NCBI GenBank assembly: GCA_964463705.1
Contig: CAYXCH010000006.1
Span: forward strand, 32,576-96,575
Direction of reading: 5' to 3'
Origin: an uncultured Pseudobdellovibrionaceae bacterium
Lineage (GTDB): Bacteria > Patescibacteriota > Minisyncoccia > Moranbacterales > GCA-2747515
DNA length: 64,000 bases
The translations under genes and the position numbers were made by a program. The notes below the pieces were generated by a model. It was given only the letters and a program-made list of their open reading frames with translations, was not told the origin of the DNA and did not search any database. How positions within the stretch are numbered: the first letter of the stretch is position 1; the number at the start of each line of letters is the position of its first letter. Shown in pieces: positions 7,057-34,272 of this stretch.

Positions 7057-10000
7057 ATGCCAAAAAAAATTACCGGACACACAGAACTCCAGGACAGTGC
7101 CTATATTAGACGCCAAAAAAAACACGTCTCTCAGACACTGTATAAACTGCGACACCAATCGGAAGAGCGTCAAGCGGCAAAAATTGCAAGGGATGCAAAG
7201 CTTCCCTATATTGATCTCAACCTCATGCCGGTGGACGATGCGGTCGTACGAAGTATTGATGAAGCGCAATCTCGCCGATACAATATTGCCATCTTTCATA
7301 AAGCGGGCCGCAATGTGCGAATCGCCATCGCAGATCCATCCAATGATGATGCACTGACCTTTATTAAAGATATTGCGACACAACAGCGGTGGCGTATCGC
7401 GCTTTATGTCGCCTCTCGTTCTTCTTTGGAAAAGGCGTGGCGCGCATATAAAAAGCCACTACTCGCCCAGGTAGATGCGTTCAACCTTGCACTGGATGAC
7501 GAACTTCTCTCCGGTGCCACACGAGCACTGGAAAACCTTCGCGCTCTGGTAGACGGTGAAGATGATGTCAGTACAACACAAGTGCTGCAAATTATCTTTG
7601 CGGGAGCGGTAGCGCTAAACGCCAGCGATATTCATATTGAACCCCAAGAAAATCGGTTGCGTCTACGGTACAGAATTGACGGAATTTTGCACGATGTCGG
7701 CGATTTGCCACGAAGACTGTATACCGGGGTTGTCAATCGCATCAAAATCATGTCGCACATGAAAGTAAATGTGCGCACCATTGCGCAGGACGGGCGATTG
7801 AGCATCGCGTTGGATGGAGAGATGGGGGGTGAAGTGGACATACGTGTCAGCACCATTCCCGGAAATTATGGCGAGAGTATCGTCATGCGCCTATTGATTA
7901 AAACCGGGAAACTTCTTGATCTTTCCGACATGGGACTGCGTGGATTGGCGGATGAAATTGTACGAAAAGAGGCGGACAAACCCAATGGAATGATTGTTAC
8001 AACGGGACCGACGGGAAGCGGAAAAACAACAACGTTATATGCTCTTTTGCAACGAGCAAATAAGCCCGGAGTAAAAATCATTACCATTGAGGATCCGATT
8101 GAGTATGAGATTGACGGTATTTCTCAGACACAAGTATCCAAAGATGGAAAGTATACATTTGCAAAAGGATTGCGCGCCATTGTCCGTCAAGATCCGGATA
8201 TTATTCTTGTTGGAGAGATTCGTGATGATGAGACAGCGGATATTGCCGTTAATGCGGCATTAACGGGTCACCTCGTATTTACAACAATTCATGCCAATAA
8301 TGCTGCCGCTACCATTCCGCGATTCTTGGAATTGGGGGTAAAACCGTCCATCCTCCCACCGGCAATGAATGCCATCATGGCGCAGCGCTTAGTACGACGT
8401 CTGTGCTCACACTGTAAAGAGGCCTATGAGCCGGCGCAGGAAACGTTAGATATGATTAAACGATTGCTGGCAATTATCTCTCCCAAGGCAAAGGTGGAAA
8501 TCCCCAAAGAAATTACAACACTATATCGGCCCAAAGGATGCCAACGATGCGGTGGTGTCGGATACAAGGGACGGATTGGTATTTTTGAAGTGTTTACCAT
8601 TACGGAAAATATTGAAAAAATCATTTCCGATCTTGGAAGTGAAGAAGACATCATGCGCGCCGCAATGGAAGATGGCATGATGACGATGACACAGGATGGG
8701 GTTCTTAAAGCGGTAGAGGGCATTACATCTATGGAAGAGGTGTGGCGCGTAACCGCGGAAGGAGAATTTTTGGAAGATGTTTACAATCGCGTCATGGAAC
8801 AGTCACTGGCGCGAGCGATTGTTGTAGAGCGAGATATTATCACCACTCTCCGATCACTGGTTAATGACCATGAGGCGTTGGCAACCCATATCCACACAAC
8901 AAACCAAAAAACAGTTATTAAGAGCATCCTCGGTGCAGGATTGCTGATGAATGCCGGCGATATTCACATTGAGCCCGCCGCACATGGTGTAGACGTCCGA
9001 TTTCGTATTGATGGAGTATTGCAGAAAATTGGAACACTTCCCATGAATGAATACCCTTCACTCCTTTCCAATCTTAAGCTTGTCAGCGGATTGAAAACGG
9101 AAGAGCGACATGGAGTTGCCGACAGCCGTTTCTCCATTGTCTTAGATGAACCGTTATCGGAAGAACATGACACAACGCGCATTGATGTTCGTATTTCGTT
9201 TATTGTCAGTGGATTCGGAGAAACAATTGTGATGCGTTTGCTAAATCAGAGTGCCACATCACTGGATATTACACAATTGGGAATTCGTGAACAAAACCTT
9301 CACCGTATTATGGACGTGGTGAAAAAACCCTATGGCATCCTCCTTAACACCGGTCCGACGGGAAGCGGAAAAACAACAACGTTGTACAGTTTACTTCGAC
9401 AACTTAATCGCCCTGACGTTAAAATTATCACCGTGGAGGATCCGATTGAGTATCAAATGGACGGCGTATTGCAAACACAAGTAGATGAAGACTCCGGATA
9501 CACATTTGCTACCGCCCTGCGCGCACTGCTGCGACAAAATCCGGATATTATGATGATTGGAGAAATCCGTGATGAAGAGACGGCGCAAATTGCTGTACAG
9601 GCCGCTCTTACAGGCCACCTTATTCTCTCCACGCTACATACAAATTCCAGTGCCGTGGCAATTCAACGCCTAATGAATATGGGAATTAGCACTGAAGATC
9701 TTGCAACCAGTATTAATGCCATGATGGCCCAACGATTGGTTCGTGTCTTGTGTTCGCACTGCAAAAAGAAAGTACGACCATCAGCGGAACAACAATCCGT
9801 ACTCCACAATGTTCTTGATACAATTTCAGATAAGAGTGGCTTAAAAGCTCCGCAGACAACATATATATATCAACCCGTCGGGTGTGAGCAATGCACACAT
9901 GGATACCGAGGCCGAACAACCATCAGTGAAGTTCTCGTTGTCACACCGGAAATTCAAGAGATGATCGGGAATGGAGAACTCGCCACTCATATCATTGACC

Positions 10001-10104
10001 ATGCCGTTTCCAATGGCATGATTACCATGACACAAGATGGTGCGGTAAAAGTCTTTGAGGGTATCACCTCGTTGGAAGAATTGGAGCGCGTTACGGAACT
10101 GTAA
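7057..10104 (+). CDS. Tandem-fused double PilB/GspE-family secretion/pilus ATPase, 1015 aa
   Basis: Two complete ATPase modules. Each has a Walker A (GPTGSGKTTTLYALL / GPTGSGKTTTLYSLL), an Asp box/Walker B (DPDIILVGEIRDDETA / NPDIMMIGEIRDEETA) and a His box (LTGHLVFTTIHAN / LTGHLILSTLHTN). Each also has a tetracysteine motif (CSHCKE...CQRCGG and CSHCKK...CEQCTHGY). A GspE N-terminal domain is present only at the N-terminus. Confidence 0.85.
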   Translation: MPKKITGHTELQDSAYIRRQKKHVSQTLYKLRHQSEERQAAKIARDAKLPYIDLNLMPVDDAVVRSIDEAQSRRYNIAIFHKAGRNVRIAIADPSNDDALTFIKDIATQQRWRIALYVASRSSLEKAWRAYKKPLLAQVDAFNLALDDELLSGATRALENLRALVDGEDDVSTTQVLQIIFAGAVALNASDIHIEPQENRLRLRYRIDGILHDVGDLPRRLYTGVVNRIKIMSHMKVNVRTIAQDGRLSIALDGEMGGEVDIRVSTIPGNYGESIVMRLLIKTGKLLDLSDMGLRGLADEIVRKEADKPNGMIVTTGPTGSGKTTTLYALLQRANKPGVKIITIEDPIEYEIDGISQTQVSKDGKYTFAKGLRAIVRQDPDIILVGEIRDDETADIAVNAALTGHLVFTTIHANNAAATIPRFLELGVKPSILPPAMNAIMAQRLVRRLCSHCKEAYEPAQETLDMIKRLLAIISPKAKVEIPKEITTLYRPKGCQRCGGVGYKGRIGIFEVFTITENIEKIISDLGSEEDIMRAAMEDGMMTMTQDGVLKAVEGITSMEEVWRVTAEGEFLEDVYNRVMEQSLARAIVVERDIITTLRSLVNDHEALATHIHTTNQKTVIKSILGAGLLMNAGDIHIEPAAHGVDVRFRIDGVLQKIGTLPMNEYPSLLSNLKLVSGLKTEERHGVADSRFSIVLDEPLSEEHDTTRIDVRISFIVSGFGETIVMRLLNQSATSLDITQLGIREQNLHRIMDVVKKPYGILLNTGPTGSGKTTTLYSLLRQLNRPDVKIITVEDPIEYQMDGVLQTQVDEDSGYTFATALRALLRQNPDIMMIGEIRDEETAQIAVQAALTGHLILSTLHTNSSAVAIQRLMNMGISTEDLATSINAMMAQRLVRVLCSHCKKKVRPSAEQQSVLHNVLDTISDKSGLKAPQTTYIYQPVGCEQCTHGYRGRTTISEVLVVTPEIQEMIGNGELATHIIDHAVSNGMITMTQDGAVKVFEGITSLEELERVTEL

Positions 10105-10155: not shown

Positions 10156-11361
10156 TTATAACTGAATTCGGTAGAGTTTTTGATCCAGCATGTTAATAAA
10201 GAACAGTGCATCTTCATCCGGAGATAAAAACGGTTGACTAACTTTATATCGCACTGCTGAAGAAACAACATCATCAACTGGAACAACACGATCTTTTTTA
10301 TTTGTTGTAACATTGATTTTCCAAAATGTATCCCGATCCGCCGTCGGAAATGCACAATAAATTGTCACACTGTCTTTACTCCATGCACACTTGCTTACAT
10401 TTGTAGGAATACGAAGTGGACGGTATTCTCCTCCGTTTGCATTGGCAACACCGAGCATCCTCTCATTACTTCCCTTTACCACCGTAGAGCTGATTAAAAT
10501 AATCTGACCGTTCGGTGAAAACAGGTAGTCCGCATTATAATGCCCTTGAAAAAGTGTTTTTGGTGACGGTGACGCATCCAGCAAATTTACCACTTGTAAC
10601 CGGGTTTTCTCAAAAGGATTTGGCGCTCGCCAAAACGCAACACGAGAGGACTGGGGAATATTTACAAAACGTGAACCTCGTGGAATATCTCGTGCAATAA
10701 CTCGCCACTGTGATCCATCCGGCTGTGCCACATTCAATGTCGTTCTTCGTGTCACAGAATCAAAGTATGTGTAGAGAATTCGATCCCCAACTGTTGTCCA
10801 GTCCACGCGATCCACACCCGGCTTTAATGGCACTCCCTTCTGAGTGCGATGATCAAAGAAATAGATTCGTGTACCACCTGATGGATCTACAAATTTTGTT
10901 AATACACGCTGACCATCCGGCGCCCATGCCGCATAAACAAAGTTCTTTAATGGAACGTCGGAAAACGAACGCGGTGATCCTCCCAACAGCGGCACCTCCC
11001 ACACCGTTCCATCTTCTGCCGCATAGTACCGAATCACCTGCTTCTCCTCATCAACATAAGGAGAAACTACAGCATGACGTGAAACCGGAATGATACGACT
11101 TTTTGTTACTGATGGCGCACGATCTTCTGTGTAGGGAGAGGGTGTTGATGATGATGTTGACGATGAAGTTTCTCCTGATGACTCTTCCGTTTGTTCCTTC
11201 CGATCCGTTTTTGATGACTTCTTATCATTGTCTCGTGACGAATCAGAGGTAGTTGTACGCATCACTGTCTGTGTTGGTGGCGTAAACGCAAACCGATAAA
11301 TGCCCAAAAACATCAGAATAACCACCAGTAGAATCGTTGAAACAATAAATACTTTCTTCAT
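10156..11361 (-). CDS. Secreted or membrane-anchored beta-propeller (TolB/PD40-like) protein
   Basis: N-terminal TM/signal anchor, then a Ser/Thr-rich linker, then repeated W/SPDGQ-type motifs (WAPDGQRV, SPNGQII, LSPDEDALFF). Confidence 0.55.
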   Translation of the reverse strand: MKKVFIVSTILLVVILMFLGIYRFAFTPPTQTVMRTTTSDSSRDNDKKSSKTDRKEQTEESSGETSSSTSSSTPSPYTEDRAPSVTKSRIIPVSRHAVVSPYVDEEKQVIRYYAAEDGTVWEVPLLGGSPRSFSDVPLKNFVYAAWAPDGQRVLTKFVDPSGGTRIYFFDHRTQKGVPLKPGVDRVDWTTVGDRILYTYFDSVTRRTTLNVAQPDGSQWRVIARDIPRGSRFVNIPQSSRVAFWRAPNPFEKTRLQVVNLLDASPSPKTLFQGHYNADYLFSPNGQIILISSTVVKGSNERMLGVANANGGEYRPLRIPTNVSKCAWSKDSVTIYCAFPTADRDTFWKINVTTNKKDRVVPVDDVVSSAVRYKVSQPFLSPDEDALFFINMLDQKLYRIQL

Positions 11362-11373
11362 GGTGCCTGAATA

Positions 11374-14300
11374 TTAGATTCGTGGTGTCTTTCGTACCGG
11401 ATACATGCGCCACAGCAACATCATCAGAACAACAACCACTGCCACCGAAACAAATATTCGGAATAAGAATAGGGTCATTCCCGGCGCTGCCGCTCCAATA
11501 GCTGCCATAAACGCCCCCGGTGCATCCCGACGAACGATGGGATTCTCCGTGTACTCAATCTGCATATTTCCCTCAAAGCGAATCGGGGCAAGGTCTTGAT
11601 CTGTCATTTGCCATGTCGTCCGAAGAACATCGCGAACCTCCGGTGTCGGCTGATAGAGCGCTTTTACTTTAATATTTGTGCTCTCACCGGCATTACGCTT
11701 TGTTCCATCTACCGTAATAGTATCTCCTGTTTCCGGCCGATAGACACTTTCCATAAACCACGCCACTGTCGTATCGGGAGCAATCCACCGTGGATGAACG
11801 GACTCAACGATATTCATTGTGGATTTCGGATATGCCAAGAATACCTGATCACTGTATAAGACACGGCCGGCATCCGAATCTCCGGTATATGACTGCGTCT
11901 TCTTCCGATAAACGCCCGTACACGCTCCAACAGATTTATCCGGATCTGTTGGAGATAGCTTGTCACAGAATGATACATAGGGCGCAACAACCTGGAATGT
12001 TCGTGATACATCCACCGCCGCACCGGAGCCATATCCACCACCGGCTTGTTGACCGATACTGTTTGCCGAAACCGATACCGTAAACTTTGTTCCCACATCA
12101 CCCTGTACGGGCAACACCAGGCACGCCCCCGAGGAAATATTTGTGCTTCCGTCCGCACTACACCCGATACCGTACGGATTTTGCACCGGTCGTCCGTTTA
12201 ATTTCCATCGATAGTTCGTGTACCGTGCAATTCCTCCACCACTCGTGGTTTCATTCAATACAATCTTTAATAACTGATTCTTTACCACCGGACATCGCAC
12301 CAATTGCGCATCATTATCTTCACAAATCCTCTGATCATCAGGACTGGATTGCGCTGTTCCGCCGGAGGTAACCACTTCTGCCGCCGATCGCACCGTATAC
12401 ACAAGCATACGATTAGATGCTCGGGTCACTCGAAAAATTACTTCTCCCAATCCGCGACTTACATCATATTGATGCAACTCTGCCGACCCCAGATCAAATG
12501 CCTCCTCAATCTCCACTCGTGCCCGAAGGTATGTTACATCCTTTCCCGGTGGGAAGATTTTATCATTATGTAAGTTTAATTTGAACCGGAGTGTGGACAG
12601 TCCATTCCCCTCCATTGGCGACAATTCCGCTTCGGGAAAATCAAAGACTCCGCGCCCTGCCGCCCCACCGGCGATCAACCCATCTCGCCAGTTTCGTGGA
12701 TCAAAATCTGCCGTTCCATCGGCGCTCTTGTATAGCCGCCACCGATATCGTAAACGATCACTGGGGTACTTGGCATTGAGAATTGTTGCCGTAATTGTTA
12801 CCGTATCTCCCATGTTAAGATGGTTGCCGGTAAGAGAGTTTACCTCATCATTTACCGGGTTATTGGGCTCTACCGTTAATTCAATATCCAGTTTTCGGGC
12901 CGCTCCACCGCGGGTAGGTGATACCAGTGCATGCGGAGAACTTGACAAACACCGATTAAATGCCTCTTCCGGTGATGTATCAGCAAATGCGATTGCGGGA
13001 ATACTTACATCGTATCCTTTGATTTTCACCTTGTATGCACCCGTTGTTGTCGGTACGGAATTATTAACCATTCCGGAGTAGTCACACGCATTATTGACGG
13101 TGGCAAACATGATCATATTTGACGAGTCCCGGTGCTTTGTCGGCAAAATGGACTCTCCTTCCACAACAACACCCACCTGATCTCCCGGTGTATAAATCCA
13201 TGAGAATACCATTTGTCCAAGACCTACGACCGTCGCCTCGTCCTTCACACCATTTTCCGAGGTGTCATTATCAAACGGGTCTGTGTAGTAAAAATCCTCA
13301 TCAATTTTTGGAAAGGCGCCGTCAACTCCTCCTACCTGTGCCGCATCATCGGTATAATCGCCGGTTCTCCGTGGGAAAAGGTGAAATCGCTCAATATCAT
13401 CCTGTGTAATCGGTTGCGGGTTACATGTATCAATCAGATCACTTTCATCAAAGATATCCTTCCCCGTACTTTCTACACCAAACTGCTCTACACCATAAAG
13501 CTCTGCCTCACAAGAATAATACCGATCCAGTACGAATGTATCGGAGCTTGTCATAATGGCATTCTCCTCCAAATTATCTAACTCCTCCGCGGTAATCGGA
13601 GTGGGAACACCATCAACGACAACGGCGGCGGCAAAGCGCGGAGGCGGCCAGAAAGACTGTAATGCGTTAATGTCTTCATCATTACACTGAAACGGAATGA
13701 ACTGCTCATTTGGCTCTACAACATAATTCCCTCCCTCAAGATCTCCCGGCTCACCGATAGGATCATTGCCCGCCTTAGGATCACCGGCAAGATCAGCACC
13801 ACGAGCAATATACAACCATCGCAGCTCTGCCAGTGCATCTTGTCGCTCTTTCTGTTCATCAATTGTATACTCTAACGACTCTTCCGGAACACAGACAGGT
13901 ATTGCGCCCCCATCACATTCCGGCTTTGCTATACTATTAGCAACCTCTTCAAATAATGAGCCTAGTAAACCTCCACTGGAGCGCTCCTCTACGATTGCCG
14001 GACATTCCGGTATACCAACGACACTGCAGATATTAAACGTATTCTCATCAGAAGTAATATTAACGGAAACAATTGTCGTAGACTCTTGCTCTCCGCGTGC
14101 ACTTCCACCATCGCCACCATCGCCACCGCCAGCGGTACCGGAAGATCCGGTAGCACTTGCATCACCACCTTTACCTCCTTTACCGCCCTCTGCCTCTATC
14201 TCCATACGACGATCTCGATCGATGCCACGTGTAATCTGTTTTGCCGGACATGTCAGCGTCTTGTTCGCCACACATACCGGCACCTTTCCCTCCGGACAAT

Positions 14301-15027
14301 TGAAAACCTCATCCGCATTTACACTCCTAACAATTTCATAGTTTTTTCCGGAATTAAAGTCATGAAGATAGTAAAAATATGGCTTTAAGTCACCCACGGA
14401 ACTCCGCGAACGATCACCACCGGGATAGGCAACATACCCATCTTGATCCGTATCACTATCATCCGCTGCATCATCCGCATACTGGATATCAAACCCCCCA
14501 CCGGCAAGTACACGAGCCGCTTCAATTTTCCAGTCCTGCACATCATAGACACCATCATCATTGTAGTCGCAGTCCTCTCCTTCCACTTCTTCTACCACAC
14601 CATTAATCTCCCGAATTGGCGCCGCACCCAAACCATCGCCACACCGGGCACGCTTTAAATACCATGTATAATACAATGTCTCCGGTTCACCTTTAAAAAA
14701 CTTCGCAAATGCTCGGGCGGTAATTTTTTGTCCCGGTTGCGGATCATTGGGAGCAAACAAAATTTGCACTTCCGGCGCTAATGTTTTATTACCACCAACA
14801 TTCGCCACCTCTCCAATATCCCGTACTGATTCCTGACTTACATGATAGCGCTTCTCCGCCCCGCCAAGAATATCATCAATATCCGGAACTCCCAATGCTT
14901 TCCCGGCAGCACCAAAAAGACCACCTAAGGCTTTACCGAATAGTCCCGCATCTACCGGCACCGCTGTCAATAAAAAAATCTGTACAATCACCGTAACAGT
15001 CATTGCAAATTTTCGTATTGTTTTCAT
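11374..15027 (-). CDS. Large cell-surface protein (~1217 aa) with signal peptide, Gly-rich segment and C-terminal TM anchor
   Basis: The probable start is the Met at 15027 (MKTIRKFAMTVTVIVQIFLLTAVPVDA). The ORF-track start at 15123 overlaps the upstream gene. It has a GGKGGKGGDASATGSSGTAGGGDGGDGG tract and a C-terminal hydrophobic helix followed by basic residues. Confidence 0.6.
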   Translation of the reverse strand: MKTIRKFAMTVTVIVQIFLLTAVPVDAGLFGKALGGLFGAAGKALGVPDIDDILGGAEKRYHVSQESVRDIGEVANVGGNKTLAPEVQILFAPNDPQPGQKITARAFAKFFKGEPETLYYTWYLKRARCGDGLGAAPIREINGVVEEVEGEDCDYNDDGVYDVQDWKIEAARVLAGGGFDIQYADDAADDSDTDQDGYVAYPGGDRSRSSVGDLKPYFYYLHDFNSGKNYEIVRSVNADEVFNCPEGKVPVCVANKTLTCPAKQITRGIDRDRRMEIEAEGGKGGKGGDASATGSSGTAGGGDGGDGGSARGEQESTTIVSVNITSDENTFNICSVVGIPECPAIVEERSSGGLLGSLFEEVANSIAKPECDGGAIPVCVPEESLEYTIDEQKERQDALAELRWLYIARGADLAGDPKAGNDPIGEPGDLEGGNYVVEPNEQFIPFQCNDEDINALQSFWPPPRFAAAVVVDGVPTPITAEELDNLEENAIMTSSDTFVLDRYYSCEAELYGVEQFGVESTGKDIFDESDLIDTCNPQPITQDDIERFHLFPRRTGDYTDDAAQVGGVDGAFPKIDEDFYYTDPFDNDTSENGVKDEATVVGLGQMVFSWIYTPGDQVGVVVEGESILPTKHRDSSNMIMFATVNNACDYSGMVNNSVPTTTGAYKVKIKGYDVSIPAIAFADTSPEEAFNRCLSSSPHALVSPTRGGAARKLDIELTVEPNNPVNDEVNSLTGNHLNMGDTVTITATILNAKYPSDRLRYRWRLYKSADGTADFDPRNWRDGLIAGGAAGRGVFDFPEAELSPMEGNGLSTLRFKLNLHNDKIFPPGKDVTYLRARVEIEEAFDLGSAELHQYDVSRGLGEVIFRVTRASNRMLVYTVRSAAEVVTSGGTAQSSPDDQRICEDNDAQLVRCPVVKNQLLKIVLNETTSGGGIARYTNYRWKLNGRPVQNPYGIGCSADGSTNISSGACLVLPVQGDVGTKFTVSVSANSIGQQAGGGYGSGAAVDVSRTFQVVAPYVSFCDKLSPTDPDKSVGACTGVYRKKTQSYTGDSDAGRVLYSDQVFLAYPKSTMNIVESVHPRWIAPDTTVAWFMESVYRPETGDTITVDGTKRNAGESTNIKVKALYQPTPEVRDVLRTTWQMTDQDLAPIRFEGNMQIEYTENPIVRRDAPGAFMAAIGAAAPGMTLFLFRIFVSVAVVVVLMMLLWRMYPVRKTPRI

Positions 15028-15040
15028 AATATATGTCCTG

Positions 15041-15676
15041 TTATACCGCATAGATTCGCACCATAAGAATAACCCCGCTTGTGAGGAAAAAAAATAACAT
15101 CGGTGAAGATAGTGCGCGTGCAAAGTACCCGATGAGCGCCGCCATCACCATTGCCACCGTTCCTCCGATAACCCCGACACCTATCTCTCCCGATGTTACC
15201 AACACTGAACATAGGGTAACAGCAAGTACTGTCATTATTCCCTGTCGCCATAAACCGCATCCAATCACTCCACCATAGAAAAACGCATGGACAATAGCGG
15301 AATACATTAACAATGCACTATACATTATCATTGATAATCCCTCCTGTGCAATTCCCGGAATCCGAATAACTTGTTCCAGTTCACGATTCATCGTAATCGC
15401 TACAAAAAATACCAGAGAGAGTGCCGCTGATGACAACAACGCCAATATCACTCCTCGCATTCCACCCCGACGACGAATACCATACGTGGAGAGCGGAAGC
15501 CGCGCTCCAAAATGGAGTGTAAATACCGGCAATGCCACAAAAAACGCAGTCAATACAATAACGTCCTGAATAACCGTTTCTCGAGGGAACACGCGATACA
15601 GCACCGCCGCACTCAGTGCCGTCATAATAATAATCATATCCCGACGATCAGGAAGAAATTTGTGGATTGCTTGCAT
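15041..15676 (-). CDS. Polytopic membrane protein. Possibly a CPBP/Abi-like intramembrane protease, but weak.
   Basis: Five to six predicted TM helices with NRELEQ and SAIVHAFFYG segments. These are reminiscent of CPBP motifs but not convincingly so. Confidence 0.45.
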   Translation of the reverse strand: MQAIHKFLPDRRDMIIIMTALSAAVLYRVFPRETVIQDVIVLTAFFVALPVFTLHFGARLPLSTYGIRRRGGMRGVILALLSSAALSLVFFVAITMNRELEQVIRIPGIAQEGLSMIMYSALLMYSAIVHAFFYGGVIGCGLWRQGIMTVLAVTLCSVLVTSGEIGVGVIGGTVAMVMAALIGYFARALSSPMLFFFLTSGVILMVRIYAV

Positions 15677-15683
15677 ATGTCCA

Positions 15684-17513
15684 TTATATCACATCCTGCC
15701 GTTGTGCTGATGCATTCCGCTGCGACTGTTTAATTTCCAATAACTGCCGCGGATCCGTTGTAATAATCTGATCCTCGCTATATGAAGCAACAACCTTGAT
15801 CGCTACATGTTTGGTACCGGCAAATAGGATCCCCTCTCCAACATTGCTCTCCAACAAAAGGTATTTCTCCTCATCGGTAAGATAGAATGTTTCCTGCACT
15901 GTCTGCGCCGATGCTGTTGATTGTTTTAACAACAGCTGCAATGATGAGTTTGTTACGATTGGCTTTCCATACCGCGATCCCATAAAATCGGAAATATCCT
16001 GAGTGATTGTTGTCAATCCCGTATAGTACTTACGACACCGCTTGGCGATCCCAAACAAAAAGCTTGCCGCATCTTCTTTCTGCATCATAACCCATGCCTC
16101 ATCCACAATTACCAAGCGGCGCCGTAATTCCGCCCGCATCTTATCCCAAATAAACTGTAACGCGATGTACATGGCAATCGGCCGCAACTCCTCTTCAAGA
16201 TCACGAATATTAAAGACGATAAGATCTGCATTTGTTTTAATATTCGTATGATTATTGAGAAATCCGGAAAAAATTCCTCGTGTATACTTCTCCAATCGTG
16301 CGGAAAGAGATTCCGCTCCCTCCATATTTTCCAGTACTTGCGCAAGATCTGTCATCGTTGGGAATGCTTCCGGCGGAAGATTGCTGAAATCTTTGTCTTC
16401 CGTAATGTCACGAATGGCATACGTCTCCCGTAATGCCGTATCCAAAATAGAATCCTCTTCCGGCGTGGTAGATCCCAACATAATCCTCAATAACCCAATC
16501 AGCATTGCAATATTGGAGCGCAATACCTCTGCGGGACTTTCATCTTCTCCGACACGCGGCAGATCAAAAGGATTAATAAACGACCGTGATTTCAATGACA
16601 ACTGAATAAATGTCCCATTAACCGTATTACACAAATGCCGGTATTCATTTTCCGGATCAATCACAAATACTTGCGTCCCAAACATCATGGAACGAAGAAT
16701 TTCCAGCTTCACGGCATAACTTTTTCCCGCACCGGATTTGGCAAAGATTACCATATTGGCATTAGGCATCGTAAACCGATCCAGAATTACCAATGAGTTA
16801 TTGTGTCGATTGATTCCGTATAAGATGCCATCATCAGATGAAAGTGTTGAAGATACAAACGGGAACGTTGTTGATAATGGCTGAGTGTTCAAATTGTTTC
16901 CAACATCAATTTCATCATTCGCCAGGGGCAACGTAGAGGCAAATCCCTGCTCCATGCGCAACACTGCCGATTTAACAAATACCAACTGCGCTTCCAGGAT
17001 AGCCTGCACTTCTTTCTCCGCTTTCGTTAAGTTTTCCGTACTGTCGGCGTAAATGGTAATATATAATCCAAAGCGAAAAAAGTGCTCTGTTCCCTGCAAT
17101 AACTTGTCGCGCAGTGCCTCAATGTCCTGCAACGCCGTTTCCAACATTGGATTACGTACTTTCCCCTCTTCGCGCTCAATAGCAATTTGCGACTCTACTT
17201 GTGTTACGCTCCGACGCAATTTTTTCAGAATATCATTCGTTCGGATAGGGTGAATGAAGTACGCAATATCCATCGGTAAATCAAGGTTGATAATGGGAGA
17301 AAACCAGTTTGTTTGCAAATATCGCGGATAAGCCGTTACAAACAATGTTTTTGCATATACCTCTCCAATTGCCAAATGCATCGGTGAAACACGAACGGCG
17401 CTAGGCGCAATAAGACCGCGAACTGTTGCCACACCTCGCTGAAAAATTTTCTCCGCCTCTACAATCGATGTTTCTTCCGGTGAAGATGCATGTTGTTTCA
17501 ATATTTGTACCAT
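15684..17513 (-). CDS. VirB4/TrbE-family conjugation ATPase, C-terminal ATPase portion
   Basis: Walker A AKSGAGKSYAVK and Walker B RRLVIVDEAWVMM. The upstream segment EVYAKTLFVTAYPRY is typical of the VirB4 middle region. Confidence 0.8.
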   Translation of the reverse strand: MVQILKQHASSPEETSIVEAEKIFQRGVATVRGLIAPSAVRVSPMHLAIGEVYAKTLFVTAYPRYLQTNWFSPIINLDLPMDIAYFIHPIRTNDILKKLRRSVTQVESQIAIEREEGKVRNPMLETALQDIEALRDKLLQGTEHFFRFGLYITIYADSTENLTKAEKEVQAILEAQLVFVKSAVLRMEQGFASTLPLANDEIDVGNNLNTQPLSTTFPFVSSTLSSDDGILYGINRHNNSLVILDRFTMPNANMVIFAKSGAGKSYAVKLEILRSMMFGTQVFVIDPENEYRHLCNTVNGTFIQLSLKSRSFINPFDLPRVGEDESPAEVLRSNIAMLIGLLRIMLGSTTPEEDSILDTALRETYAIRDITEDKDFSNLPPEAFPTMTDLAQVLENMEGAESLSARLEKYTRGIFSGFLNNHTNIKTNADLIVFNIRDLEEELRPIAMYIALQFIWDKMRAELRRRLVIVDEAWVMMQKEDAASFLFGIAKRCRKYYTGLTTITQDISDFMGSRYGKPIVTNSSLQLLLKQSTASAQTVQETFYLTDEEKYLLLESNVGEGILFAGTKHVAIKVVASYSEDQIITTDPRQLLEIKQSQRNASAQRQDVI

Positions 17514-17530
17514 GGAATATGGTGTTAATT

Positions 17531-18226
17531 CTATAACCCCTTCAAGTCCAGCGTATCAATATTCTCTGACAGCGATGTGCTGGTAAATAAGGAGGGATTA
17601 TATGCATTATACAACAGCTCCAATACTTCCTCCGTATTCAACATTCGTCCGCGCACTCCGGTTCCCCCGAGTGCCGCCGCCACATGATCTACTCGTTGAA
17701 ACAACTGATTTTTATATGTTTCAAATCTCTCTCGCTTACGTGCAATTTTGTGTGCCGGGTGTAGTGCATGAAACAATCGGAGAAATATACTCTCTCCCTC
17801 ACTTTCCACGGGAGAAAACGGCACAACGACATAAAAATATTTTGTCATAATGTTCCGTACCTCCGTTAATTCACTAATGTATGCGCGGTACTCCATAATT
17901 TGCATACGAAGCGCCTCATTCTCCGTCATCCGCTCTCGTTTATCAATTTTCTTCAAGTATGGGGCAATATTAAGACGACGAGAATTAATAACGATTTGTA
18001 CGGGAAAATCCAATGAGTTTAAAAAACTCTGATACTGAATAATAATCGCATCTTGCTCTTTTTCCGATTTCAACTCAAAATTAATGGAAGACATCATTAC
18101 AATAGCACGCAATGAACCGTTCCGTAAGACGATAACACCATCGTGTACCGACTCTACGTCCACATATTTCAATGTGCTGGATCCCGATGGCCCCGTACTC
18201 AGTGATGTAGAATGTAATCGCTCCAT
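17531..18226 (-). CDS. VirB4 N-terminal domain protein. The VirB4 gene is split into two ORFs.
   Basis: HDGVIVLRNGSLRAIVMMSSINFELKSEKE matches the VirB4 N-terminal pattern. It ends 17 nt before the start of the ATPase ORF, in a different frame. Confidence 0.65.
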   Translation of the reverse strand: MERLHSTSLSTGPSGSSTLKYVDVESVHDGVIVLRNGSLRAIVMMSSINFELKSEKEQDAIIIQYQSFLNSLDFPVQIVINSRRLNIAPYLKKIDKRERMTENEALRMQIMEYRAYISELTEVRNIMTKYFYVVVPFSPVESEGESIFLRLFHALHPAHKIARKRERFETYKNQLFQRVDHVAAALGGTGVRGRMLNTEEVLELLYNAYNPSLFTSTSLSENIDTLDLKGL

Positions 18227-18231
18227 AACTA

Positions 18232-18699
18232 CTACTTCTTCTTTGTTACCGTGTTGGCAGAAATTTCATCAAATCGCTCAGGGTGAACTGCTCCCTCCGT
18301 ATCCAGCACAGTGGAAAGTGTTGACAAATCTTCTTCGCTCAGTTTTGCTTGTTCCCGATAGAACTGAGATTTATACTGGGTCTTTGGCGGTGGAGCGGTA
18401 GGTGTAGCCGATGATGATTTTGGCACACGCTTCCACACATAAATTTTTGGCTGGAAAAGATATGTCAGTGCATATCCAATGAATACAACCAGCGGAACAC
18501 CCTGCGGACGATAAAATGCCAGCGCAACAAATATCAATACGACGGGAATCCCGATAATGTAAAATGCTTCCTGGCTAAATACATTCCATAGTATCAACAG
18601 TATCGCCCCCATCGCAAGAAACCACAAAAACTGTCGTGCCGTCAACGGACCGGCAATTTTATCTTCAACATTGATAAACTGCGGTACGCTGAAAATCAT
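18232..18699 (-). CDS. PrgI/VirB3-like small membrane protein
   Basis: N-terminal VPQFINVEDKIAGPLTARQFLWFLAMG followed by two TM helices. It sits immediately upstream of VirB4, as prgI/virB3 normally does. Confidence 0.5.
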   Translation of the reverse strand: MIFSVPQFINVEDKIAGPLTARQFLWFLAMGAILLILWNVFSQEAFYIIGIPVVLIFVALAFYRPQGVPLVVFIGYALTYLFQPKIYVWKRVPKSSSATPTAPPPKTQYKSQFYREQAKLSEEDLSTLSTVLDTEGAVHPERFDEISANTVTKKK

Positions 18700-19679
18700 A
18701 CGGTTGTATTATGTTTTGCGTCCGATGATCGTTCTCGCGCAAATACTTGTGGTGATGAGAACCTTACATATCCCATCGGAGTGGATGGTGATGCTGATTT
18801 TATTGTACCACGATTTCCGGTACGTGTCGCCCCGGTGGCAGTGGTAGATAGTTTATCAGGTGATGTACGAGAAGAATTCGCTGCTTTTCTCTCTGATGTG
18901 GGAGCAGGTGTATGCGCTACAGATGATGAAATACCTTCACGATGTGGAATATCCTGTGGAGCCGGAAATATAATAGCCGGCTGAGCGGTATTGATTACCA
19001 ATGGAATCTTCTCATCATAAGACTTTAAAATCATTGCAACACGCTGTCGTTCCTGCGGCGAAAGTGATTTTGTATTGCGATTATGAAATAGATACTTCCC
19101 CCGATCAATTGCATTATGTGTACGAGATCCCATCACTGATCGATAATTCTGCAGCCAATTCTCCACCGTCCCCGGAACGTGTTCCGGCATAATAATATCC
19201 TGCTGTGTAATACGCTGAATGGCAATATCGGGAAACTGTTTTAGTGCCGCTGTTAATGGCATACGAACATTAGCATTGACGATCTCCTTCCGAATAACAC
19301 GCCGTACCAATACTTGTGCAATCTGTGCCGCCACCGATGCCTCCACACCGGTGTGTTCTTGAATATATGCCGCAAACCGTTCCAATGGCAGTTCTTCAAA
19401 GTAGAACAGCCGCACCGCCCGTGAAAGATATGCCGCCTGTTCAACAGATAGTGAGTATTGCTTACTGATTTCTTTAATTTTCTTGTCCGTTTCCTCTGAT
19501 GCAAGAATGTCTTTAGCGCTGTCACTTAATGCAAAAAACTTCCTCCATCGCTCGGCATTTTCCTCCTCTGTTTCCCGCGGACTTGTCGGTACCCACATTG
19601 GCGAATAGCTTTGCACTATATATACATCATTTGGTGATATGACAGAAGAGGCGGTATGATGATGAGACTGATTAGGCAT
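18696..19679 (-). CDS. Hypothetical protein within the T4SS-like operon
   Basis: 327-aa ORF with a 4-nt overlap (ATGA-type coupling) with the downstream gene. No family motif recognised. Confidence 0.5.
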   Translation of the reverse strand: MPNQSHHHTASSVISPNDVYIVQSYSPMWVPTSPRETEEENAERWRKFFALSDSAKDILASEETDKKIKEISKQYSLSVEQAAYLSRAVRLFYFEELPLERFAAYIQEHTGVEASVAAQIAQVLVRRVIRKEIVNANVRMPLTAALKQFPDIAIQRITQQDIIMPEHVPGTVENWLQNYRSVMGSRTHNAIDRGKYLFHNRNTKSLSPQERQRVAMILKSYDEKIPLVINTAQPAIIFPAPQDIPHREGISSSVAHTPAPTSERKAANSSRTSPDKLSTTATGATRTGNRGTIKSASPSTPMGYVRFSSPQVFARERSSDAKHNTTV

Positions 19680-19695
19680 ACGTCATATTATTAAA

Positions 19696-21540
19696 CTATT
19701 TGTTGCCCGGACGGGGTTGATTATTCGAGTATTGCCTATATACATCCGACAATCGCTCCAATTGGTTGTGATTATCTTGTTCGGTATTACGAAACACTTC
19801 TCGCAATGCATCTTGATTATCAAAGAATTGCTCATCTAAGTATCTCTGCATTACTTTTGCGGAATTGCGAACTTCTCCAAGGCCTTGCTGCTTTGCCATC
19901 TCTTGAGGTGAAATATCCATATGCAGTGCCGCCGCATCTTCCGGTGCGACAACAATGATGTTATTTTCATCATCAAGCTCAAGGTCTTGTCCGGTATTGT
20001 ATGAATACTCTACCAATGTTCCGCGACGCTTTTGGCGATTTATCTCTCCCTTCAACTGAAATCGATATGCCGCCGTCTCTGCGCCATTACCAATTGCTCG
20101 CGTTGTTGTCGCAATATCAGTGGCGGTAAGTCGACCCCGTTTTGCCAACTCCATTGCCGCCGCCGCCCGCTCATGGCGGCTTTTTTTAGAATTTAAAACT
20201 CTTCTCAATTGACTTGGCGAAAGATGCTCCATTGACTTGGAAAATGAAGCCACCGCATTGGCAAACGCCTCTGCTTTTGCACGCTCTCTCTCCACAATGG
20301 CAAACTGTGCCGACAGTACCTGTGCATGACGATTCGCCTTTCGCTCAAATCGTTCACGACGGCGCTGCGCACTTACTTTGAATGATCGGGCGGTGCCGAC
20401 AACAAGAGCTGCTCCCGGTATCTTTCTCGCCATATTTGCAATAAGCTTTCGGTCCTTCGCCGCCATACCGCGGAGACGACGAACAGTGTTCCGAGCAGCA
20501 CCGGTAACCATTCCACTGGCAGCATCGGACATTGCTGATGATGTAATAATACCGGACCATAGGATAATTACCGGAATTGCCAAAAATGCGATATTGGCAA
20601 TATTTGATGTTTGTGCGGCATTGGTGGCGGCGGTATCAGCGGGAATTGTGATGCGAATATCACTATCTTTACTAAATGCAATATCATGATTATATGCCAT
20701 GAATGTCATGGAGAAGAACAATGTAAACACGAGAATTGGCCCCGCCATCGCATATTTAAACAAGTTATTCCAATATCGACTGGCAATACCCTGTGTAGAC
20801 GGAAGTATGGATGCAACAAACCCTATTGGTGACAGTACCATAAGAATTGCCAATGCAACCAATCGAATAACAAATAATACCCCGATAACCACCATGGATA
20901 TACTGTAGAAGAAAGAGAAGATAACGGCAAAAAATGTATATGTTACTGAGGATGTCTTGGCATCAAAGTTGGGAACAAATACATCCATAATATTAATACT
21001 CCTTCCGAAAATCTCTACCGGCTCATACCCCGTACCGTTCTGTGGAAACAGTGAATGAAGAAAAAAGTACATGACAATATTGAAGACATCAATAATCGCC
21101 TTAGTGATTGGAAGGGAAAAGTTTACCAATAGCGCCATAATCACCAAGCGCAATAATATTGATCGTAAATGAAACCGTTCTATATGGAAAATTGTTGCAA
21201 ATGCGCTAAATAATAGAATAAGAATGAATGATAAGTTTAATAGATCCCTTACCAATACCCACGTTACATCAATAACTTGCGCATCCAGAATTGCTCGTGT
21301 CGTATCGGCATCCACAATGTAAACAAATAACAGTGTCCCCGCAACACCCAATAATCCAAAGCCGACACCGATATAGTATAACACCCAGTTAAGTCCCGAC
21401 ACGATCGCGGAAGCATCAGCAATATGGATACCCAGAAATACGCCGATAATCGCCAGTAATCCGGCGCGCCTGCGTGTTCCGGTTGTCACATTCAACAATC
21501 TTTTCAAATATTGCCTCATAAAAATAATCATTTCTATCAT
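19696..21540 (-). CDS. VirB6/TrbL-like polytopic membrane protein with C-terminal coiled-coil/charged tail
   Basis: About 8 hydrophobic helices followed by a long Arg/Ala/Glu-rich tail. The start is set at the Met at 21540, because the ORF-track start (21666) would overlap yraN. Confidence 0.6.
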   Translation of the reverse strand: MIEMIIFMRQYLKRLLNVTTGTRRRAGLLAIIGVFLGIHIADASAIVSGLNWVLYYIGVGFGLLGVAGTLLFVYIVDADTTRAILDAQVIDVTWVLVRDLLNLSFILILLFSAFATIFHIERFHLRSILLRLVIMALLVNFSLPITKAIIDVFNIVMYFFLHSLFPQNGTGYEPVEIFGRSINIMDVFVPNFDAKTSSVTYTFFAVIFSFFYSISMVVIGVLFVIRLVALAILMVLSPIGFVASILPSTQGIASRYWNNLFKYAMAGPILVFTLFFSMTFMAYNHDIAFSKDSDIRITIPADTAATNAAQTSNIANIAFLAIPVIILWSGIITSSAMSDAASGMVTGAARNTVRRLRGMAAKDRKLIANMARKIPGAALVVGTARSFKVSAQRRRERFERKANRHAQVLSAQFAIVERERAKAEAFANAVASFSKSMEHLSPSQLRRVLNSKKSRHERAAAAMELAKRGRLTATDIATTTRAIGNGAETAAYRFQLKGEINRQKRRGTLVEYSYNTGQDLELDDENNIIVVAPEDAAALHMDISPQEMAKQQGLGEVRNSAKVMQRYLDEQFFDNQDALREVFRNTEQDNHNQLERLSDVYRQYSNNQPRPGNK

Positions 21541-21553
21541 TATATCATATATT

Positions 21554-21937
21554 TTATAAAAAGATATCTTGTAAAAATTGTACCTGCGCTTTTCGTGTAT
21601 GCACATTAATACACACACTGATTGCGCAGTATCGTATCGCCCCCGTCCGCTGATATGCCCGGACATAGTATGCCATTACTCGCTCCATCGCGTGCAACTT
21701 TGCACGCGTAATACGCAGCTGTGGTGGATCCACATTCTCCGAGCTATGACGAAGACACGTTGTTTTTACTTCCACACAATACAAAACTCCCGAACGCTCC
21801 GCAATAATATCCACCTCTCCTCGCTTGATGGGAATCTTTGGCATATAATTGCGCGCAACAATATCATACCCCCGCCGTTGCAGATATCGCGCGGCAATTT
21901 CTTCCCCAAGCCGTCCGCATTCCCATGCTGTTGACAT
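21554..21937 (-). CDS. yraN: YraN-family (UPF0102) endonuclease
   Basis: GRLGEEIAARYLQRRGYDIVARNY...GEVDIIAE matches the YraN/UPF0102 signature. Confidence 0.8.
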   Translation of the reverse strand: MSTAWECGRLGEEIAARYLQRRGYDIVARNYMPKIPIKRGEVDIIAERSGVLYCVEVKTTCLRHSSENVDPPQLRITRAKLHAMERVMAYYVRAYQRTGAIRYCAISVCINVHTRKAQVQFLQDIFL

Positions 21938-21940
21938 ATA

Positions 21941-21965
21941 TACAAAAAGGCGGGAAATCCCGCCT
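21941..21965 (-). terminator. Intrinsic terminator ending the intergenic transcript, 8 nt upstream of the yraN ATG
   Basis: On the minus strand: AGGCGGG, AUUU, CCCGCCU, followed by UUUUUGUAUAU. Confidence 0.55.
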
Positions 21966-22495
21966 ACATTCCGTTAAGATACCGACAATCCACTGTCAGT
22001 CAATTCCCGGTGTCTTCCCGTATGAGGTGTTGTCACCGGGGGCACTGCGCCCCTAAACAGATTCCTTGGGCCGTGCCGCCCGGCTGATGCAGACAACATG
22101 CTGCGCGCTTCTCGTACTCGGGTGAATGGATACAAGAAGAAACAGTGCATGTAATATATCTGCCTCACACACGTGATTCTATCACGCGCTGACATGGTGC
22201 GAGCATTGCTCGCCTACGCCTCCCCGTCCGCGGGTTTGCTCCCCTTTTTTTCTTCAAGGTACTCGGTACACTTTTGTTTTTATTTTTGTGTTTTTGTATT
22301 TATGCTTGATAAATACGACCGTTTTGTTTTTGTTTTTTGTGTGTTGTGTTGTTTGCCGGCATCATATGATGCTCAGACTAACAAACATACGGACAGTGGA
22401 GACGTTCCGATTGTGAATAGGGGGGCTTCACAATCGGAACGTCGCCACCGTCGGCGTCCATGTCATTTCTTGTTAATGTGCGTTTCGTTACTGAC
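21941..22495 (-). ncRNA. Candidate ~555-nt non-coding transcript of unknown class
   Basis: Bounded by a near-consensus sigma70 promoter (22502..22530) and an intrinsic terminator (21941..21965). No ORF of meaningful length. Contains a perfect 17-bp hairpin (22398..22440) and an A/C-rich tract. Confidence 0.3.
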
Positions 22496-22501
22496 AAGCT
22501 C

Positions 22502-22530
22502 AGTATATCATCCTCTAAAGGCCACGTCAA
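22502..22530 (-). promoter_or_regulatory. Near-consensus sigma70 promoter
   Basis: On the minus strand: TTGACG, a 17-nt spacer, then TATACT. Confidence 0.5.
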
Positions 22531-30035: not shown

Positions 30036-32345
30036 TTAATCAAAATCTGATGATTTGCACTTACGATCCGGCACCGGCGCAACAATAATCTTACGGTCCA
30101 TTTCCTCGTAATATTTTCGAACACCACGCTCCCACGCCGTATACTGCGGATCTCTTTCCGGATGTTTTGGCGGCGGACCGAGCGGATTTTCTCTATCAAC
30201 ATAGTGCAAAATGCTGTGCGCGTTAATAAACTTACGCCGCTTGACATCCCGATCCGCATCCTCGCACGCATCGGATTTAAGGCACCAAGTATTCTTTTTC
30301 TTAGAAATGCGACATACTTTTTCCTCCACCATTTCCGGTACAAATCCATCCCGCAGCGGGCGACGCTCCGTATCATCATCTGTCGTCTTCGCATCAGACC
30401 CTTCCGCCTCATCATCACCATAATCCGGAAAATGCTCAATGCGCGTCCCGTCCAACGATTGTTCCAAAAACGCTCGCCAAATCGGTGCCGCTACGACGCT
30501 TCCCGACGCACCATCTCGCATTGGCCGGTTATCATTATTCCCCACCCATACACCAACCGCCAATGAGGGTGTATATCCCATTGTCCACGCATCACGAAAA
30601 CTGTTTGTCGTTCCCGTCTTTGCTGCAACAGGACGATCATCAAACCGCAACGGATTATTTGCGGAAAACGCCGGAACGCGGTACTTGTTGGTGGATAGTG
30701 CCTCATCAAGCATTGCAACATATTCCTCCTCCACTACACGCACCCCCTCCGTATCATGCCACTGTTCCACCACTTCTCCCTCTTTATCCTCAATACGCAA
30801 AATCATTGTCAGCGGCTTACGCACTCCGCCGTTTGCAAGGGTTGCATAGGCATGAGTATGATTTAACAGTGTTACTTCTCCACCACCCAACACCAGTGAC
30901 AACCCGTATCGCCGCGGATGCTCCAATCCCGTCACCCCCAGCTCTCGCGCAAGACGTGCCGCCTCCGACACACCAACCAAATACAACGCCTTTACCGCCG
31001 GGATATTCAAGGACATCGCCAACGCGCGCTTTACCTTTACCGGACCGCGAAATGTCCCATCATAGTTTCGCGGCTCATACGGATCTTCCCCGTCATCAAA
31101 TCGTGTTCGCACATCATACAGAATTGTATCCGGTGAGTACCCCTTACGAAACAACCCCAAATATACATAGGGTTTAAACGAGCTTCCCGGCTGTCGAAAG
31201 CGCATGGCAACATTAACATTTCCATCAATCTCGCGACTAAAATAGTCTACACTTCCCACCATCGCCAATACCTGTGCCGTCCGAGGATCAATCGCTACCA
31301 ATGCGGCATTTTCGGCATTATACCGAGCATTACGCTCTACCCCTTCACGAACGACCGTCTCGGCCCGGCGCTGTGCCTCCATATCAATCGTCGTAATCAC
31401 TCGCATCCCCGCCTCCTCCAACTCTTGTTTTCCGTAGCGCTTCTCCAAATACTCACGGATCGCCATCACAAAATGTGGCGCCCGAATCTGTGTTCGTTGC
31501 GGTGTTATCTTTTCTAACGTATCAATCGCCTTTGCCTCATCGGCACGTTGACGAGTAATGTATCCCAACTCCGCCATCTGATCCAGCGCATAGTGCTGAC
31601 GTCGTACAAGACGCTCCAAACGAGCCGGAGATGTGTTATACGGAGAATAGCGGGACGGTTGTTGCGGAAGCGCCGCCAGCAATGCCGCCTCATCCAGCGT
31701 CAGCTCTCGTGCATGTTTACCGAAAAATGTCTGCGCCGCCGCTTCAATTCCATATGCGTTGGACCCATACGGAATTTCGTTAAGGTACATTGCCAAAATT
31801 TCATCTTTGGTAAACTTACGCTCCAACTCCATTGAAAGAATAACCTCCTTCAGTTTGCGCTCATATGTACGCTCACTGGTCAATAACGTATTCTTAATCA
31901 ACTGCTGTGTAATCGTTGACCCTCCACTGCTGCGACCACCAACCAACTGCGGAAACACTTGGGAAATTGCCGCACGAAGAATTGCGGTAATCTTAACACC
32001 GTGATGTTTGTAAAAATCTTGATCCTCCAATGCAAGTGTCGCATAGCGCACAACTGTTGGAATTTCTTCAAATGGAATAATTGTTCGCTTCTCCTCTCCG
32101 TGAATATCATACAATAGTACCGTCCCCGTCCGATCATAAATTTTCGTAGACTCCACCACCTTCAATGCGGTAATCTCATCAGCGGGCGGCAAGTCTTTTG
32201 CGTAATACCAAAACACTCCCGCCGCTCCCACAAGCGCAATCACGCCGAGTGTCAATATACCGTATGTCGCAATTCGCCCTATCGTTCGCCACATTGTCCG
32301 CCGCGATGCCCGCCGTCGCTTTCGCATATGATATCGTGCACCCAT
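30036..32345 (-). CDS. mrcA: Class A penicillin-binding protein (bifunctional glycosyltransferase/transpeptidase, PBP1A-like)
   Basis: N-terminal TM, GT51 motifs (LEDQDFYKHHGV, GGSTITQQLIKN), and transpeptidase motifs (PGSSFKP, SLN, KTGTT). Confidence 0.9.
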   Translation of the reverse strand: MGARYHMRKRRRASRRTMWRTIGRIATYGILTLGVIALVGAAGVFWYYAKDLPPADEITALKVVESTKIYDRTGTVLLYDIHGEEKRTIIPFEEIPTVVRYATLALEDQDFYKHHGVKITAILRAAISQVFPQLVGGRSSGGSTITQQLIKNTLLTSERTYERKLKEVILSMELERKFTKDEILAMYLNEIPYGSNAYGIEAAAQTFFGKHARELTLDEAALLAALPQQPSRYSPYNTSPARLERLVRRQHYALDQMAELGYITRQRADEAKAIDTLEKITPQRTQIRAPHFVMAIREYLEKRYGKQELEEAGMRVITTIDMEAQRRAETVVREGVERNARYNAENAALVAIDPRTAQVLAMVGSVDYFSREIDGNVNVAMRFRQPGSSFKPYVYLGLFRKGYSPDTILYDVRTRFDDGEDPYEPRNYDGTFRGPVKVKRALAMSLNIPAVKALYLVGVSEAARLARELGVTGLEHPRRYGLSLVLGGGEVTLLNHTHAYATLANGGVRKPLTMILRIEDKEGEVVEQWHDTEGVRVVEEEYVAMLDEALSTNKYRVPAFSANNPLRFDDRPVAAKTGTTNSFRDAWTMGYTPSLAVGVWVGNNDNRPMRDGASGSVVAAPIWRAFLEQSLDGTRIEHFPDYGDDEAEGSDAKTTDDDTERRPLRDGFVPEMVEEKVCRISKKKNTWCLKSDACEDADRDVKRRKFINAHSILHYVDRENPLGPPPKHPERDPQYTAWERGVRKYYEEMDRKIIVAPVPDRKCKSSDFD

Positions 32346-32504
32346 AAAAACACCTCGTTAACTTACACCCGTATTTTACCGCACTTAAAGTAATTGCGCC
32401 AATTATTCTCTTTCCGAAAAATTGTTATTTGCAAAGAGCAGAGTTCGGAAAATAAAACGCATTCTATTTATTGGCAATGTGCCACGACAAACAAAAATCC
32501 ATCG

Positions 32505-34260: not shown

Positions 34261-34272
34261 GGATGTTTGAAG

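Follow-up and report, generated by a model that had tools for sequence, protein, structure and literature searches.

The 64-kb window analysed here (64,000 nt of contig CAYXCH010000006.1, positions 32,576 to 96,575, from an uncultured bacterium of the GTDB lineage Moranbacterales) carries on its minus strand a type IV secretion system (T4SS)-like gene string in which the ATPase VirB4 is divided over two adjacent open reading frames (ORFs). The first encodes a 231-residue protein (the N piece), the second a 609-residue protein (the C piece). Their products are homologous to consecutive segments of VirB4, and both the split and the order VirB3-like gene, N piece, C piece are conserved. We conclude, with a probability of about 0.9, that the locus forms the chromosomal core of a T4SS of the Patescibacteria type (monoderm and related to MPF_FATA) in a Moranbacteria genome, in which VirB4 is naturally encoded by two adjacent genes. 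An earlier annotation made from the letters of the window (the sequence-only reading) had listed seven minus-strand ORFs, all of which are present, and had left two explanations side by side: a tolerated two-piece VirB4 in an operon resembling the T4SS-like systems of Gram-positive bacteria and the candidate phyla radiation (CPR), or a frameshift or sequencing error.

Two genes that together cover VirB4

The junction on the minus strand reads ...TTG AAG GGG TTA TAG, with the stop codon at 17533-17531, so that the N piece ends in ...DLKGL; AATTAACACCATATTCC (17 nt) follows, and the C piece begins with the ATG at 17513 in another frame. The succession TAG AAT TAA and the change of frame, both described previously, are thus confirmed by direct reading, a TAA lying two codons past the TAG of the N piece. 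Upstream of its start the C-piece frame is open just as far as '*YAGLEGVIELTPYSM'; a single indel that fused the two ORFs would therefore have to hit within about 24 nt, the stretch around a G4 run (AAGGGG) over which both frames are open. Together the two products have 840 residues, compared with 818-823 for single-chain VirB4 proteins, which bears out the remark that they add up to one canonical VirB4. The junction is the same, base for base, in a second public record (ENA k141_355117, 44.8 kb), which may or may not stem from reads independent of those behind the 114.9-kb NCBI/JGI contig.

The C piece is matched by the NCBIfam model for VirB4-like conjugal transfer ATPases of the CD1110 family (NF045971) with 345.3 bits (E 6.8e-103), above the cut-off of 325, and by the Pfam families P-loop_TraG (5e-28) and CagE_TrbE_VirB (1.6e-6). 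Its residues 223-585 match the C-terminal domain of Thermoanaerobacter TpsVirB4 (4AG5, E 2.1e-48) and residues 253-552 match TrwK (E 2.5e-5). By these matches, the C piece bears a RecA-like ATPase domain homologous to the solved VirB4 C-terminal domains.

In NCBIfam the N piece is matched best by the model for the TrsD/TraD family conjugative transfer protein (NF041427, 33.6 bits, E 3.3e-8), followed by the N-terminal positions of several models for full-length VirB4. Pfam PF26593 ('TraC-like') is recorded as a precomputed match on the identical protein entry and on all 120 homologues of the N piece; the local copy of Pfam-A, presumably without the PF26593 model, gave no match at E ≤ 0.1. A PDB sequence search with the N piece returned just a chance-level match to TrwJ. 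The best structural match of its AlphaFold2 model is TrwK.

The two pieces occupy complementary parts of the same models. On NF045971 (752 positions) the N piece is matched over 11-117 and the C piece over 168-734, and no single polypeptide spans the model; on TIGR00929 the corresponding ranges are 18-195 and 239-724. Against the 818-residue CD1110-family VirB4 of a Lacticaseibacillus plasmid, whose gene sits after a PrgI gene, residues 29-231 of the N piece align to 56-228 (hhalign E 5e-5, core) and residues 30-566 of the C piece to 229-772 (E 1e-54). When the Walker-A motif of the C piece is aligned with that of TrwK (253 to 446), about 220 residues of the N-terminal domain remain before the ATPase in the C piece. 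The break therefore lies inside the N-terminal domain and not between this domain and the ATPase. The label 'VirB4 N-terminal domain', which the sequence-only reading had given to the upstream ORF, holds as to the domain, but the ORF encodes just the first half of it.

Conservation of the split and alternative explanations

A word-indexed search found 2,834 homologues of the N piece; the best 120 are 217-261 residues long, 55-77% identical and from Moranbacteria or Patescibacteria. When 1.84 billion cluster representatives were searched exhaustively with HMMER, 2,331 of them matched, and the best 150 have 130-443 residues and 33-57% identity; a full-length (800-residue) VirB4 fused to the N piece is not found among these 150. 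The best 120 homologues of the C piece are nearly all 593-644 residues long, with 68-86% identity. We fetched 80 loci, each from a different species-level genome of the Moraniibacteriota, and found both genes in 77. In every one of the 77 the N ORF is terminated by a stop codon (TAA in 54, TAG in 13, TGA in 10), the C piece has its first aligned residue 8 to 706 nt beyond this stop, and the relative frame of the two genes is 0, 1 or 2 in 22, 31 and 24 genomes, respectively. Because stops, spacers and frames vary in this way, a sequencing frameshift, a recent pseudogene and a programmed frameshift are taken to be excluded. The proposed comparison of fused with split VirB4 at orthologous loci thus yields the split form throughout; the homologues and the 77 genomes agree with a tolerated two-piece VirB4 and contradict a frameshift or sequencing error.

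Three C-piece homologues of 861-874 residues were considered as fusions of both pieces and rejected, the extension being proline-rich, disordered and not an N piece. Among the Moranbacteria C pieces, P0217, P0232 and P0237 have a proline-rich, low-complexity N-terminal extension of ~260 residues, and the C ORF has 650-835 residues in about 20 of the species loci. Evidently the C piece can accommodate long disordered stretches at its free N-terminus.

That the split is an artefact, either a frameshift of sequencing or assembly (for example at the AAGGGG run) or a recent mutation turning a single virB4 into a pseudogene, has in its favour that one indel within the ~24 nt of shared open frame could fuse the ORFs. 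Against this stand the two-ORF layout in all 77 related species, with differing spacers and all three relative frames, the existence of thousands of N-piece homologues that stand alone, none of the best matches being fused, the strong conservation of both pieces and the identical junction in the second assembly record. The artefact is effectively refuted, and we consider it highly improbable. Hardly any weight can be given either to the production of one VirB4 polypeptide from both ORFs by programmed ribosomal frameshifting or readthrough of the stop codon. The short spacer and overlapping frames of the window genome would suit such a mechanism, but readthrough of the TAG would run into the TAA two codons on, spacers in relatives reach hundreds of nucleotides, the C frame is closed just upstream of the C start in many loci, no conserved slippery motif is found and gene pairs that share a frame still hold an intervening stop.

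It is also conceivable, but unlikely, that the 231-residue protein is an independent accessory factor (for example a regulator or chaperone) and a paralogue of the VirB4 N-terminus, the 609-residue protein being a complete, self-sufficient short VirB4. No function is assigned to TrsD in the literature, TrsD homologues of Gracilibacteria lie mostly away from virB4 (Quinonero-Coronel et al. 2025, PMC12102498) and some N-piece homologues, of up to 443 residues, have long extra tails. The VirB4-model matches of the two pieces are complementary and non-overlapping, however, so that the N piece provides a part that is missing from the C piece; the adjacency of VirB3, N and C genes parallels the domain order of fused VirB4; and the homologue in Southlakia epibionticum is listed as essential (PMC12102498).

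Several results weigh against reading the locus as a T4SS core with a naturally divided VirB4. The 33.6 bits of the N piece are far below the NF041427 cut-off of 200, and by this measure the N piece is a remote relative of that family rather than a member in NCBI's sense. Its AlphaFold2 model is of medium confidence (pLDDT 62), and hhalign comparisons with single sequences reach modest probabilities (10-67%). The physical association of the N piece with the C piece and with PrgI is predicted from homology and gene order. The putative VirB6 protein of the string scores 16.7 bits (E 0.006) against TrbL/VirB6 (PF04610), whose gathering threshold is 25.9. Finally, no VirB2-like pilin, VirB1-like hydrolase or VirB8-like protein is recognised in the window, so that the composition of the machine is either incomplete or divergent.

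Known systems with a divided or single-chain VirB4

The arrangement of a TrsD-like gene followed by virB4 is already described for Patescibacteria and for some Gram-positive T4SS. In the Staphylococcus aureus plasmids pGO1/pSK41 (MPF_FATA, pGO1 subclass) the order is likewise VirB3-like gene, TrsD-like gene, short spacer and VirB4-type ATPase gene: pSK41 encodes TrsC (VirB3-like), TrsD (227 residues) and, after 14 nt, TrsE (672 residues, DUF87/VirB4). The N piece fits this layout as a stand-alone protein of ~200-230 residues whose gene lies between that of a VirB3-like protein and a shortened virB4. The C piece aligns colinearly to TrsE, its residue 35 matching TrsE residue 38 (E 5e-48), and the N-piece profile is colinear with TrsD from end to end (E 3e-3); according to these alignments the position of the break is shared with TrsD/TrsE of pSK41. 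The similarity to TrsD is remote and below the family cut-off, however, and the plasmid pSK41 is conjugative, its cluster including a relaxase, a VirD4-like type IV coupling protein (T4CP), a CHAP hydrolase and a topoisomerase, whereas the window locus is chromosomal, lies about 30 kb from dnaA and has none of these four within 64 kb.

Compared with single-chain VirB4 proteins (TrwK of R388, PDB 7O41/7O42, and the CD1110 family), the two pieces cover the whole protein and include the same ATPase domain, but they are two polypeptides, divided within the N-terminal domain near residue 228 of the 818-residue VirB4. Stand-alone homologues of the N piece are also encoded between PrgI-like genes and VirB4/DUF87 genes for 620-660 residues in Pontibacillus (NZ_CP062975, Bacillota, E 5e-21) and Miltoncostaea (NZ_CP064357, Actinomycetota, E 1e-16). 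These clusters differ in that they lie on megaplasmids of cultivated monoderms and have a pilin-like gene and a peptidoglycan hydrolase among their neighbours. A further homologue is contained in a larger gene, annotated as hypothetical, on a haloarchaeal plasmid; its neighbours are unannotated.

The T4SS of Patescibacteria is related to MPF_FATA; of 2,272 TrsD homologues in this group 1,664 adjoin virB4, most of the clusters are without a relaxase and they are often near dnaA (Quinonero-Coronel et al. 2025, PMC12102498). In S. epibionticum, whose TrsD homologue was mentioned above, the T4SS is essential for epibiotic growth and no recognisable coupling or relaxase proteins are present (Wang et al. 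2023, PMC10633639). The window has the features of this clade: a chromosomal VirB4 with adjacent TrsD and PrgI/VirB3 homologues and a VirB6-like gene, close to the origin and with no relaxase or T4CP nearby. The nearest homologues of both pieces are all from Moranbacteria or Patescibacteria, and this best-hit taxonomy suggests that the window VirB4 belongs to the Patescibacteria clade. Two traits set the window apart. No VirB2-like pilin array was recognised in it, whereas one related locus (L002) has two T4SS_pilin genes upstream of PrgI; and its sub-clade has a layout of its own, with the VirB6-like gene and a gene for a 327-residue cytoplasmic protein upstream and one for a 1249-residue surface protein downstream.

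The hallmarks of a conjugative MPF_FATA T4SS, a relaxase and a VirD4/TcpA-type coupling protein, were not found in the window: no ORF of at least 130 residues contains a T4CP or relaxase domain. The sequence-only reading had reported both as missing, together with VirB11; the neighbouring ATPase of the T2SSE family is PilB-like, with an MshEN domain, and not a VirB11.

Other genes of the string and their surroundings

The two VirB4 genes belong to a co-directional minus-strand string at 10156-21937, with spacers that are short or replaced by overlaps (Table 1). The string had been described as ending at 15041 and probably runs on to 10156. Related Moranbacteria loci are referred to as L001 (the closest large contig), L002, L004 and L006. 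Synteny was counted over 84 loci, with tblastn used for the 1249-residue surface protein.

Table 1. Features of the gene string, in the order of transcription.
Feature	Position in the window	Strand	Evidence or remark
yraN, UPF0102 family, first ORF of the string	21554..21937	-	Pfam UPF0102, E 3.3e-17; position kept in L001, L004 and L006
VirB6-like polytopic membrane protein, 656 residues, hydrophilic C-terminal extension	19696..21666	-	sub-threshold TrbL match and matches of orthologues
Conserved cluster protein, 327-residue ORF (300 residues in another annotation)	18696..19679	-	no transmembrane segment
PrgI/VirB3-like membrane protein, 155 residues	18232..18699	-	Pfam PrgI (PF12666); upstream of the N piece
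N piece, stand-alone TrsD-like/'TraC-like' protein, 231 residues	17531..18226	-	corresponds to about the first 200-230 residues of single-chain VirB4
Intergenic spacer, 17 nt, from N-piece TAG to C-piece ATG, with frame change	17514..17530	-	reading of the junction; spacer variable in 77 species
C piece, VirB4/TrsE-type ATPase, 609 residues	15684..17513	-	second half of the N-terminal domain and RecA-like ATPase domain
Multi-pass membrane protein, 211 residues	15041..15676	-	7 nt downstream of the C piece; L001 homologue with 28% identity
Large surface protein, 1249 residues	11374..15123	-	signal-like N-terminus, C-terminal transmembrane anchor
401-residue protein, last gene of the string	10156..11361	-	convergent with the PilB-like gene; kept in L001; weak matches to surface proteins

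The 155-residue protein is matched by PrgI with 40.2 bits (E 5e-10; threshold 27); its gene shares 4 nt with the gene upstream of it, and 5 nt separate its end from the N piece. PrgI, N and C genes adjoin in this order in 82 of the 84 loci. Further upstream, homologues of the VirB6-like gene occur in 39 loci and of the 327-residue gene in 49. The listed ORF of the VirB6-like gene overlaps yraN, and its true start is therefore probably an internal ATG near 21522. In addition to the sub-threshold match given above, this protein is matched by the NCBIfam model for the CD3337/EF1877 mobilome membrane protein (1e-4), Pfam TrbL is matched, without competition from another family, by 8 of 30 orthologues at E ≤ 0.01 (best 1e-8), and the family profile aligns to the TrbL-family protein of pSK41 (hhalign E 1.7e-4). 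The orthologue profile found nothing meaningful among PDB sequences. The 327-residue protein has no transmembrane segment; residues 1-218 of its 300-residue form are confidently helical and the tail is disordered, and a structure search returned no informative neighbour and no VirB8-like match. The hidden Markov model (HMM) searches proposed for VirB3/PrgI, VirB6 and VirB8 thus had mixed results, positive for PrgI, below threshold for VirB6 and negative for VirB8: no ORF of the cluster had a VirB8/PrgL-like match in Pfam or NCBIfam.

Neither the 211-residue nor the 1249-residue protein downstream of virB4 has a family match in Pfam or NCBIfam. The latter probably starts with MKTIRKF at about 15027, and 41 of the 84 loci encode homologues a few kb downstream of virB4; this protein may be a contact or adhesin component. 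After virB4, L001 has two additional genes (L001:12562-13882; 146 residues, membrane, and 292 residues), and L002 has its two T4SS_pilin genes before PrgI (L002:8211-9477) and a gene for a 151-residue membrane protein after virB4 (L002:12562-13017); none of these is detectable in the window. For the VirB2-like pilin, tblastn with the two L002 T4SS_pilin proteins gave no match in the window, the HMM scans having taken ORFs of at least 130 residues.

A gene-free stretch of 765 nt between a gene for a 426-residue protein and yraN shows several signals of an RNA gene. The candidate, of ~540 nt (21940-22530, minus strand), lies directly upstream of yraN. Its promoter at 22530-22502 (minus strand; TTGACG-17-TATACT with a TG extension) is the best sigma70-like one in a 13-kb scan, and a strong intrinsic terminator at 21965-21948 (minus strand) ends about 10 nt before the yraN ATG. 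The 561 nt between promoter and terminator fold with -217.8 kcal/mol, compared with -155.9 ± 6.9 for shuffled sequences (z = -8.9). The same promoter and a terminator are found in the homologous stretches upstream of yraN in the three closest relatives. The candidate also has conserved single-stranded tracts rich in A and C. RNAalifold applied to four distinct sequences (window, L001, L004/L091 and L006/L090) gave 80 pairs, 21 of them with compensatory changes, compared with 0-8 in slid-partner controls; the structure was derived from the same four sequences in which the changes were counted. Rfam yielded no family, whether at the gathering threshold or with E ≤ 1, and no tmRNA was detected by ARAGORN. 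A pattern scan of metagenomes returned just two contigs, duplicates of L004 and L006, and a covariance model of the 3' domain, run over 832 kb of related loci, detected no additional copy. We tentatively raise the possibility, which we hold to be doubtful, of an undescribed structured RNA of ~540 nt (21940-22500, minus strand) with its own conserved promoter, through which the yraN/T4SS string would be entered and which would act as a leader/attenuator or a co-transcribed non-coding RNA that gates expression of the T4SS genes. This candidate may be more novel than the split of VirB4.

Convergent with the end of the string is the PilB-like gene (7057-10104, plus strand). Its 1015-residue product combines an MshEN domain with a tandem of two complete T2SSE (PilB/PilT-type) ATPase domains, one spanning residues 168-564 and the other about 620-1011, and both have a P-loop; a 1008-residue counterpart occupies the same place in L001. 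On the other side of the string, dnaN and dnaA lie at 48547-51276 (minus strand) and the cumulative GC skew is lowest near 50 kb; together these place the replication origin about 30 kb away from the T4SS genes, in line with reports for many Patescibacteria. Between them, positions 32000-40100 have a low GC content (0.37-0.40, compared with about 0.46-0.50 elsewhere) and hold several ORFs without a family and three genes of RimK-type ATP-grasp proteins. Just past this stretch, at 40.1-42.2 kb and with normal GC content, are an ATPgrasp_ST gene and a gene for a 7TM_transglut membrane protein. The low-GC stretch and the adjoining genes may be an acquired island for peptide or polyglutamate-type modification. 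Encoded at 43410-46229 (minus strand) is a probable surface protein of 939 residues, which has a PKD domain in addition to three Lamin-tail domains.

Proposed working and meaning of the divided VirB4

We propose that the N and C polypeptides would associate non-covalently and so rebuild a VirB4 protomer. The N-terminal domain of VirB4 binds VirB3 in the R388 structure, and the N piece would similarly dock onto PrgI/VirB3 at the membrane and pack against the remnant of the N-terminal domain in the C piece. The hexameric ATPase would power assembly or transport via the VirB6-like channel. Because no relaxase or coupling protein is encoded nearby, host interaction is favoured over conjugation and is the most likely role of the machine, which would transfer protein or other macromolecules at the interface between epibiont and host. 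Such a working has been proposed for the homologous, essential system of S. epibionticum.

The locus leaves the current picture of T4SS unchanged. For annotation it means that short VirB4 genes that follow a 'hypothetical' gene for ~230 residues, in the CPR or in Gram-positive elements, should not be taken for pseudogenes or assembly errors, and that the pair should be annotated as one functional VirB4. It also defines a layout of a Moranbacteria sub-clade (VirB6-like protein, 327-residue protein, PrgI, N piece, C piece and, further downstream, the large surface protein), whose members without a family are candidate lineage-specific components. The locus adds one more example of the Patescibacteria T4SS that is thought to underlie the epibiotic lifestyle.

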